In this document: piece by piece, positions 42,729 through 42,945 of the stretch
How the letters are laid out: each line of letters begins with the position of its first letter
How positions within the stretch are numbered: position 1 is the stretch's first letter
NCBI GenBank assembly: GCA_019747895.1
Contig: JAIEQF010000019.1
Location: 792 to 64,791 of the forward strand
Length of the DNA: 64,000 bases
Direction: 5' to 3'
From: Chthoniobacterales bacterium
GTDB lineage: Bacteria; Verrucomicrobiota; Verrucomicrobiia; Chthoniobacterales; UBA6821
Made by a program: the position numbers and the translations under genes
Notes under the pieces: generated by a model
The model's input: the letters and a program-made list of their open reading frames with translations, nothing else
Database searches by the model: none
What the model was told of the DNA's origin: nothing

Positions 42729-42945
42729 AGCCACAAAGAAAATTAACCGCAAAGAACGCAAAGAGCGCAAAAAAAGAAGTGCAAAAATTGAAGGATGAAA
42801 CTTCATTAGTTCATGGTTTGCATTCATTGGCATGATAATTCAGGTCTATGAATTTGAGAAAGCAAGTTGACTCGGTTTTTTTTCTTTGCGCTCTTTGCGT
42901 TCTTTGCGGTTAATTATTTTTTAATTTTGTGTTCCTTGCGGTTGA
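42729..42945. repeat. inverted 9-mer arrays (AATTAACCGCAAAGAACGCAAAGAGCGCAAA / rc) around a ~105-bp spacer
   Basis: Read directly from the sequence. The inner arms 42741..42771 and 42884..42914 are perfectly complementary over ~31 nt. The outer arm encodes the C-terminus of the next gene. Confidence 0.9.

Follow-up and report, generated by a model that had tools for sequence, protein, structure and literature searches.

We analyzed a stretch of 64,000 nucleotides (nt) from a Chthoniobacterales bacterium (assembly GCA_019747895.1, contig JAIEQF010000019.1, positions 792 to 64,791; hereafter the window), in which arrays of short tandem words form inverted pairs at gene junctions. One such element, at 42729-42945, lies between a UvrD/PcrA helicase gene (40743-42719, minus strand) and a Peptidase_S11 carboxypeptidase gene (42921-43820, minus strand; these genes and those flanking the other full-size loci were assigned with Pfam). 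With a probability of roughly 0.6, we consider the window loci to be gene-less copies of the inverted ends of a small selfish cassette, which carries a gene for a ‘GxxExxY’ protein, lodged between housekeeping genes.

Inverted word arrays at the gene junctions of the window

Read from the helicase side, the element at 42729-42945 begins with an outer left half-arm, TAGCCACAAAGAAA (42728-42741, plus strand), which lies 10 nt from the helicase ATG at 42719 and pairs weakly with 42900-42914. It is followed by an inner left arm (42742-42778, plus strand) made of an ATTAACC head and CGCAAAG words with a 9-nt period, an AT-rich non-coding spacer of 99 nt with 35% GC (42779-42877), an inner right arm that is the reverse complement of the left one (42878-42914, minus strand), and an outer right half-arm, TTTTGTGTTCCTTGCGGTTGA (42923-42945, minus strand), which codes for the end and stop of the D-Ala-D-Ala carboxypeptidase. 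Measured at 42735-42778 and 42878-42921, the arms are 44 nt long, 91% complementary and 99 nt apart. An earlier note on this DNA, made from the sequence by a model, had put perfect complementarity at about 31 nt from 42741; the pairing of 42742-42771 with 42885-42914 is indeed perfect, over 30 nt.

Two further full-size loci have the same build, a TTAACC head followed by CRCAAAG words with a 9-nt period in inverted pairs. The first (17772-17991) separates a Cys/Met-metabolism pyridoxal phosphate (PLP) enzyme gene (CGL, 16601-17755, minus strand) from a PALP (cysteine-synthase-like) enzyme gene (17987-18940, minus strand) and consists of an outer left half-arm ATTAACCGCAAGA (17773-17785, plus strand) 17 nt from the PLP enzyme ATG at 17755, an inner left arm ATTAACCGCAAAGAACGCAAAGATCGCAAAAAA (17809-17841, plus strand), an AT-rich spacer of about 97-98 nt with 26% GC (17842-17938), an inner right arm TTCTTTGCGTTCTTTGCGGTTGA (17939-17961, minus strand), and an outer right half-arm TCTTGCGGTTAAT (17979-17991, minus strand), whose TAA is the stop codon of the PALP gene. 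Its arms at 17803-17831 and 17940-17968 are 29 nt long, 90% complementary and 108 nt apart, and the two outer half-arms form a perfect inverted pair of 13 nt. The second (22983-23169) lies between UvrC (21423-22970, minus strand) and Fic (23257-24348, plus strand); here a degenerate left arm, TTTAACCGCGAAACATGCGAAAGAACACAAAGAAAA (22985-23020, plus strand), 15 nt from the uvrC ATG at 22970, is separated by an AT-rich spacer of about 120-124 nt with 28% GC (23021-23139) from a right arm ending in …TTCTTTGCGTCCTTTGTGGTTAAT (23140-23166, minus strand), which faces the Fic gene, and the arms pair more weakly, at 23004-23018 and 23143-23157. There is also a compact copy (13366-13466), in which a left arm with a TAGCC head and five CACAAAGAA units (13366-13414, plus strand) directly follows the stop codon of a class II (Asp/Lys/Asn-type) tRNA synthetase gene and is joined to a short right arm, CCTTTGTGTTCATT (13449-13466), by a loop with the palindrome AGAATTTTTTTATAAAAAAATTCT (from 13414; loop and arm together 13415-13466, minus strand). 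A solo half-arm, TGGCCACAAGGAACGCAAAGAAGA (15358-15381, plus strand), stands between a DUF4143 ATPase gene and a GNAT gene.

The arrays are far in excess of chance. The 22-mer TTAACCGCAAAGAACGCAAAGA occurs exactly at 17810(+), 42743(+) and 42892(-), with one mismatch at 17940(-) and two at 23144(-), and had no match in shuffles of the window, while the two-unit pattern of the 9-nt repeat matched 14 window sites against 0.27 expected. Tandem Repeats Finder reported period 9 at 13370-13414, 17815-17838, 17939-17956, 42748-42771 and 42883-42908. The three full-size spacers, of 98, 124 and 99 nt, have a GC content of 26-35% compared with 43.7% for the window, and are no more similar to each other than shuffled sequences are. 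The observations of the earlier note are confirmed: the copies of the 22-mer, the 9-nt period, the three full-size inverted loci, the compact locus (given as 13370-13463), the solo half (15360-15380) and the lack of conservation between spacers all stood up, and the spacers, given there as 95-115 bp, are AT-rich as claimed and measure 98-124 nt. Its account of the gene contacts also agrees with ours: the arrays start about 10-17 nt from the minus-strand ATGs at 42719, 17755 and 22970, the TAA of a head ends the PALP gene, and the outer right arm at 42923-42945 encodes the carboxypeptidase tail YQPQGTQN-stop.

Orthologous regions from close relatives of the source metagenome-assembled genome (MAG; loci L117-L127) revealed that these elements are insertions. 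The carboxypeptidase/helicase junction is empty in L119 (helicase 88% identical), where a stop codon is followed by 2 nt and the ATG, and L120 (86%) has no element there either, with a 4-nt overlap between the genes. L117 (93%) has at this junction a 156-nt element of the same architecture made from another word, AGTAAAGAGTAAAGCGTAAAGGGTAAAGAGT … ACTCTTTACCCTTTACTCTTTACTCTTCACT, around a spacer of about 90 nt unrelated to that of the window. At the UvrC/Fic junction, L124 has 67 nt only. They correspond to an 11-nt tandem array found in the window as well, behind the CGCAAAG element, which is therefore extra in the window relative to L124. CRCAAAG-type arms occupy the PALP/CGL junction of the window and those of L125 (93%) and L124 (87%), around mutually unrelated spacers of 98 nt in the window and 35 and about 150 nt in the relatives. 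A 45-nt module of CACAAAGAA units and the palindrome AGAATTTTTTTATAAAAAAATTCT is shared by window positions 13397-13440 and the PALP/CGL element of L124, which are non-orthologous sites, and further elements of the same build in these relatives use GTAAAG, GATGGAAG and GTTGAAG words. The window elements are lineage-specific insertions at gene junctions with rapid turnover. The earlier note had proposed both a comparison of orthologous intergenic regions and a dispersed inverted-repeat family resembling miniature inverted-repeat transposable elements (MITEs), and the latter is what the comparison shows, as the element is present in the window and absent from the same site in L119, L120 or L124. 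This accounts for the short distances between arms and start codons, because the insertions hit junctions with almost no intergenic DNA (2 nt, or an overlap, in relatives).

The next intergenic region, between the TPR and carboxypeptidase genes, varies as well. In L117 (2812-2962) and L119 (2954-3104) its place is taken by an element of inverted word arrays, CACAGGGATGGAAGCGATGGAAGGGATAAAGAA … TTCTTTTATCGCTTCCATCGCTTCTATCCCTGTG, with an AT-rich spacer of about 100 nt; in the window (43821-43953) and in L120 (3004-3122) it is ordinary sequence that can be mutually aligned, and the window version contains a short inverted pair of the word AAGGCTGAAG at 43900-43950.

A GxxExxY minigene cassette with the same arms

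The repeat is not confined to this lineage. In a scan with one genome per species, the exact 19-mer AACCGCAAAGAACGCAAAG was found in at least 116 genome loci from over ten phyla with GC contents of 31-68%, comprising Acidobacteriota, Verrucomicrobiota, Bacteroidota (including cultured Flavobacterium, Pedobacter and Pinibacter), Cyanobacteria (Calothrix, Nostoc, Sphaerospermopsis), Chloroflexota, Planctomycetota, Armatimonadota, Elusimicrobiota, Lentisphaerota, Ignavibacteria, NC10, Binatia and some Proteobacteria. A few of the matches are chance coding matches (e.g. in Planococcus), while the majority are not: a third word follows within 14 nt in 72, and the TT of the head directly precedes the match in 60, of the 124 matches listed, and many are paired with an inverted partner at a distance of 9-335 nt. 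For a non-coding 19-mer, exact conservation across phyla of such different base composition is unusual, and requires either frequent transfer or conservation of a partner that recognizes it. In one Bacteroidota MAG, three copies of about 205 nt are at least 90% identical, with a conserved interior and sharp ends at the outer inverted repeats, which is the pattern of a dispersed repeat.

All-against-all clustering of the open reading frames (ORFs) of the at least 116 loci disclosed no recurrent transposase, integrase or recombinase. The earlier note had suggested looking for a transposase with matching ends; what recurs in these loci instead is a small cluster of ~120-aa proteins with a PDDEXK_3 domain (PF13366), annotated as TIGR04256 ‘GxxExxY protein’. 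This cluster provided the lead to a cassette, and in L089 and L069 the GxxExxY gene lies between convergent arrays. The only other recognized cargo between arms of the 19-mer loci was an OmpA gene, probably through chance pairing of arrays.

We then took 80 metagenome loci chosen solely by protein similarity to GxxExxY/PDDEXK_3, 75 of which had both flanks. A forward array was present within 250 nt upstream of the gene in 57 of the 75 and a reverse array downstream in 62; the gene lay inside both convergent arrays, with the TTAACC heads outermost, in 50, and 70 had at least one array, against a background of 0.12 arrays per 500 bp in the rest of the same loci. After orthologous loci had been collapsed to 54 flanking contexts (51 evaluable), both arms were found in 34 of 51 independent contexts and at least one correctly oriented arm in 46, with a median inter-arm distance of 405 nt. 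The layout is uniform: a host stop codon, (T)TTAACC, two to four CRCRRAG words, 4-84 nt, the ORF, 3-58 nt, the reversed words, GGTTAA(A), and a host start codon. The complete cassette thus measures about 480 bp, and its gene of ~120 aa encodes a PDDEXK_3 protein of the PD-(D/E)XK nuclease fold; in L218, L186 and L146 it is lodged tightly between host genes, abutting both stop and start codons. All words are transition variants of CRCRRAG (GCAAAG, ACAAAG, GCAGAG, ACGGAG), and word type follows protein similarity (0.655 vs 0.621, exceeded in 0 of 1000 permutations). Furthermore, similarity between unrelated loci spans the gene and, on either side, about 50 nt of arm, and ends there, which identifies the cassette as the unit of homology. 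A side observation concerns L089 (7085-8000), where the GxxExxY gene is accompanied on one side by four tandem modules of about 95 nt, each of which has a separate TTTTAACCGCAAAG head, and on the other side by three or four modules in inverted orientation; these form concentric layers, as if by repeated nested insertion, and the window loci, with outer and inner arms, are a two-layer version.

The window arms belong to the same family. A sequence-only profile (R1), built from 47 arms flanking GxxExxY genes (alignment A4) with no window sequence, was used to search the 64 kb with filters off, and ranked the window arms first: 23140-23166(-) at E=5.7e-7, the best window match, 17933-17961(-) at 4.6e-6, 17809-17833(+) at 5e-6, 42742-42764(+) at 1.5e-5, 42892-42914(-) at 1.8e-5, 13369-13391(+) at 0.0028 and 22985-23020(+) at 0.036. 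The solo half at 15360 (E=0.81) is not significant alone, and the outer half-arms (E=1.4-6), among them 42728-42741 and, at E=1.4, 42923-42945, fell below significance; besides array arms, the profile found no further window site at E<0.5. The window loci also share with the cassettes a head plus at least two words, inverted arms with the heads outermost, and tight lodging between host genes. No GxxExxY ORF lies between the window arms, whose spacers are 98-124 nt compared with ~405 nt in the cassettes. Among the matches listed, only 4 of the at least 116 19-mer loci carry the gene, so that the hairpin without it is the usual form. Many phyla hold such bare hairpins as well as complete cassettes with the same arms.

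Under our preferred explanation, the arms would be DNA-level ends, recognized or used during copying of the cassette to new intergenic sites, with recognition probably by the cassette's own putative PD-(D/E)XK nuclease. Gene-less copies may have arisen through loss of the gene or may be mobilized in trans in the manner of MITEs. The stop codons of the heads (TTAA) and the long stem that transcribed arms could form would make an intergenic insertion tolerable; the TAA in each head stops host frames that run into the element, as in the PALP gene.

Several observations weigh against this explanation. Comparison of the occupied window site with the empty L119 site revealed no target-site duplication; the TTAA, TGAA and CGAA heads are mirrored at both ends and are as such part of the inverted repeat, not a direct repeat. 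A tblastn search with 80 proteins detected no GxxExxY gene or remnant beyond noise in the window or in ~100 kb of relatives (L117-L127); a protein search for a possible partner gene listed only names of the Pedobacter lineage. The spacers resemble neither each other nor cassette interiors, which leaves an origin by deletion unsupported. Several cassettes occupy the same site in genomes that are 70-85% identical, so cassettes may be old residents rather than active movers, and movement may be rare. In L049 and L179 the gene lies between outward-facing heads. The 80 loci were the nearest relatives of a single query subfamily, itself found via the 19-mer, and other PDDEXK_3 subfamilies may differ. 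Finally, to our knowledge GxxExxY is not a known transposase or homing enzyme.

A survey of the PD-(D/E)XK superfamily lists the function of PDDEXK_3 as ‘Unknown’, with multiple transfers between divisions (PMC3424549). Sequence and profile searches of GxxExxY against the PDB gave no match, an AlphaFold model from a shallow alignment reached a mean confidence (pLDDT) of 51, and Foldseek found no PDB match for it at E≤0.001; we conclude nothing from these searches. The name ‘GxxExxY’ appears in some papers, none of which deals with flanking repeats, and the literature searched contained no description of the repeat sequence or of its link to GxxExxY, in agreement with the earlier note, which had not recognized a described family. 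Curated family notes presumably do link these small proteins to rRNA intervening sequences, and prior awareness of such a connection is possible. A plasmid collection yielded one match, on a Calothrix megaplasmid, a phage collection yielded none, and IMG/VR contained 18 array matches and only 2 GxxExxY genes; phages or plasmids as vectors are not supported by these counts. Phage-like contigs carry the opposite, purine-rich array strand directly before start codons, and in one of them (L130, 10374-10470, from IMG/VR) a CGCAAAG array is followed by four copies of AAGGCTGAAG just before an ATG. Other hairpin repeats, known from many phyla and of the GTCATTCC…GGAATGAC and GAGTGCGG…CACCGC types, adjoin arrays at L036 (4440-4640), and also in L080 and L144.

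Competing explanations

Among the rivals, an explanation at the RNA level is the most probable, if itself unlikely. It holds that the elements are insulators akin to rRNA intervening sequences (IVSs): transcribed arms would pair into a stem of 30-45 bp, and cutting by RNase III would separate cistrons or excise the insert, hence the preservation of the arms. The predicted RNA folds are strong, at -83 kcal/mol (z=-11.2) for 42715-42950 on the minus strand and -62 kcal/mol (z=-7.7) for the 17772-17991 locus, and two window copies lie between co-directional genes that are coupled in relatives. The 23S IVS of Coxiella burnetii shares the layout: it is 428 nt long, with a terminal stem of 28 bp cut in the middle by RNase III and an S23p ORF of ~14 kDa in the loop, and it may be what is left of a mobile element, an origin that is debated (PMC4990558). 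Moreover, L064 has a 23S_rRNA_IVP-family gene (PF05635, E=6.6e-18) between two tRNA genes and inside inverted arrays of another word, of the AAATTG type. However, arm mismatches in 33 cassettes showed no excess of G:U pairs (26 G:U-compatible vs 39 A:C-type on the sense strand, p=0.14), divergent genes flank 18 of 81 classified copies as well as the uvrC/Fic copy, so that one transcript would not be expected to span both of their arms, and solo halves exist. The RNA-level explanation can coexist with that of a cassette, as the reason why insertions are tolerated.

A host regulatory cassette is improbable. In that reading a promoter would lie in the spacer, and the arm, rich in pyrimidines (UCUUUGCG repeats), would serve as a 5' leader controlling how the gene downstream is translated. 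Such a cassette would account for arms that end about 10-17 nt from three start codons, for other pyrimidine-rich word arrays directly before the ATGs at 27005, 33325 and 33673, and for L117 and L119, where a word-array element replaces the ordinary region upstream of the carboxypeptidase gene, so that some promoter must lie inside or upstream of the element. Nevertheless, sigma-70 scans of the three spacers gave 1, 3 and 0 weak matches against 0.6, 0.7 and 1.3 in shuffles; the spacer at 42779-42877 has one weak promoter-like site and that at 23021-23139 none, and terminator scans of the three loci were likewise at or near shuffle level. Short-loop copies (9-40 nt) are too small for a promoter, and the same genes are presumably expressed in relatives that lack the element. 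Nor do the arrays prefer one type of intergenic region: among the matches listed, 45 lie between co-directional, 18 between convergent and 18 between divergent genes, roughly in proportion to the background (374, 104 and 114), and both array strands occur next to start codons. There is no evidence for host use of the arrays as promoters or leaders, and on the same grounds the portable promoter/leader cassette that the earlier note had listed as a candidate is not supported.

We consider it very improbable that the elements are integron attC-like sites, or repetitive extragenic palindromic (REP) sequences or their paired form (REPINs) mobilized by a REP-associated tyrosine transposase (RAYT). 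Some heads do resemble attC core sites (ATTTAAC … GTTAAAT), the class II tRNA synthetase and CGL genes are separated by a variable island with GNAT, nucleotidyltransferase and ATPase genes, and REPINs are also inverted pairs (PMC3116915). Yet the elements measure 170-217 nt, with symmetric tandem-word arms of 30-44 nt, compared with 57-141 nt for attC, no gene comes with the insertions at housekeeping junctions, the at least 116 loci have no integrase or transposase that recurs next to them, and single arms are neither palindromes nor marked by the GTAG or CGTC tags that define REP sequences (PMC3733652). An invertible switch, in which a recombinase would flip a promoter segment of ~100 bp between inverted repeats, fits the geometry of inverted repeats around an AT-rich segment of that size by gene starts, and is nonetheless hardly credible, since the orientation is identical in independent assemblies (L125/L126/L127 and L117/L118; with 2-3 per site, too few to exclude rare inversion), many copies have loops of 9-40 nt, the complete form encloses a gene, and no recombinase recurs near the at least 116 loci. 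CRISPR arrays, which consist of direct repeats of 24-48 nt between unique spacers of similar length, are rejected, as they were in the earlier note, because the repeats are inverted and each locus has a single spacer. Because the conserved core is CRCRRAG with variable spacing, readings as LexA boxes, Rho-binding or Hfq-binding sites or DNA uptake sequences were dropped.

The explanation by gene-less cassette ends can be extended, tentatively and with the expectation that the full version is rather too bold. On this extension, the CRCRRAG arrays would be the working ends of an unrecognized, very small autonomous mobile element of ~480 bp whose only gene encodes the 120-aa PD-(D/E)XK GxxExxY nuclease that recognizes its own ends; it would have spread through more than ten phyla and left many gene-less hairpins behind, and word arrays around other minigenes (the IVS protein S23p, or the GTAAAG and GATGGAAG elements of the relatives) would then belong to the same general class. 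The data suggest that such a class exists more widely, with word-array inverted repeats enclosing minigenes or empty spacers, and apart from CRCRRAG/GxxExxY we have single examples of it. In kind, the proposed system is a selfish cassette that ends in inverted repeats and has MITE-like derivatives. Very many proteins of Bacteroidota, Cyanobacteria, Acidobacteriota, Verrucomicrobiota and other phyla carry the annotation GxxExxY/PDDEXK_3, and a defined DNA partner makes this anonymous family a testable system. If true, the explanation would account for a class of intergenic hairpins that split operons, add protein tails such as YQPQGTQN and cause spurious ORF calls, and the cassette may be a non-rRNA relative of the long-unexplained rRNA intervening sequences.

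Other repeats of the region and known systems

The window and its relatives contain other repeats and variable regions. At 31153-31298, inverted arms of 19 nt (TAGACTTCTTTCGAAACTC and GAGTTTGGAAAGAAGTCTA, 95%) surround a GC-richer core of 108 nt, which recurs with ~77% identity at different intergenic sites (L117, 642-760; L119, 784-902; L124, ~12500-12570); it has no Rfam match at E≤1 and is either a separate dispersed repeat or a candidate small RNA. The 11-nt array between uvrC and Fic (ATTGCTGATAA, 6.3 copies, 23201-23270), in which one base per unit is changed in L124 (4646-4713), may serve one of these two divergent genes as a protein-binding array. Tandem word arrays also lie at gene boundaries: CCTACAG (4.7 copies, 26966-26998) six nt before the ATG at 27005, TTAAACTC (3.8 copies, 33292-33321) before the cutA ATG at 33325, ACCTGTA (4 copies, 33634-33662), which spans the cutA stop and precedes the ATG at 33673, and TGGAAGTG (33221-33241) at the 5' end of ORF 31320-33257. 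The interval between the class II tRNA synthetase and CGL genes (13342-16600) holds GNAT, DUF4143 ATPase, GNAT and DUF6036 nucleotidyltransferase genes in the window, the ATPase only in L124 (11155-12587), and a gene of 528 aa plus a GNAT gene in L125 (3370-5676). A palindrome that looks like an operator, TTTACTCAATGATTGAGTA, occurs near the DUF4143 ATPase and GNAT genes (14061-14103 and 15955-15991) and upstream of the ATPase gene in L124 (~12400). Lastly, an ORF of 708 aa (46162-48288) between the P5C (pyrroline-5-carboxylate) reductase gene and a gene of 171 aa is absent from this place in L117 and L119, and aligns with the 5' part of L120.

Among known systems, the ORF-bearing IVSs of the 23S rRNA genes of Coxiella burnetii and Leptospira (PMC4990558) come closest in architecture and resemble the cassette in being units of ~430-480 nt with an inverted-repeat stem of ~28-45 bp and an ORF of ~120 aa in the loop, in their sporadic distribution and signs of horizontal transfer, and in being regarded as selfish. 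They differ in location and content. The elements described here lie between protein-coding genes and not in rRNA helices: no cassette was found inside an rRNA gene and no conserved rRNA motif in any locus, and in the window Rfam searches (gathering thresholds on the whole, E-value mode at 42680-42980) returned no rRNA match, only spurious plant-miRNA hairpins, while no tRNA gene was found. The cargo of the cassette is a PD-(D/E)XK GxxExxY protein, not the four-helix S23p, and the window copies have no ORF. Cassette arms are moreover tandem 7-nt words with a head conserved across phyla, and their stem is a predicted one.

REP sequences and REPINs (PMC3116915, PMC3733652) are likewise extragenic and of high copy number, often form inverted pairs 20-100 bp apart, and occur in clusters and tandem arrangements. 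A REP unit is a palindrome of 20-40 bp tagged with GTAG or CGTC (PMC3733652), whereas a single arm here is a direct tandem array without self-complementarity, and no RAYT was seen. Integron attC sites, of 57-141 nt, have R''/L'' and L'/R' boxes with extrahelical bases and form arrays of one orientation next to intI. The short tandemly repeated repetitive (STRR) heptamers of heterocystous cyanobacteria, reportedly described by Mazel et al. in 1990 as simple tandem arrays, are also intergenic tandem words of 7 nt, and the window has, in addition, period-7 and period-8 arrays by gene starts; STRRs are not known to have been described as inverted pairs with a conserved head or as the ends of a gene cassette.

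MITEs such as the Correia/NEMIS elements of Neisseria share with the window elements a short non-coding body, terminal inverted repeats, a position next to genes and presence or absence between relatives; their transcripts can fold, and they outnumber the gene-bearing form. Unlike MITEs, the elements described here have no target-site duplication, their interiors are not conserved in the window, and their partner gene encodes a protein of 120 aa with a nuclease fold and not a recognized transposase. The MITE families known to us are confined to a genus or family, while the end sequence described here is found in more than ten phyla.

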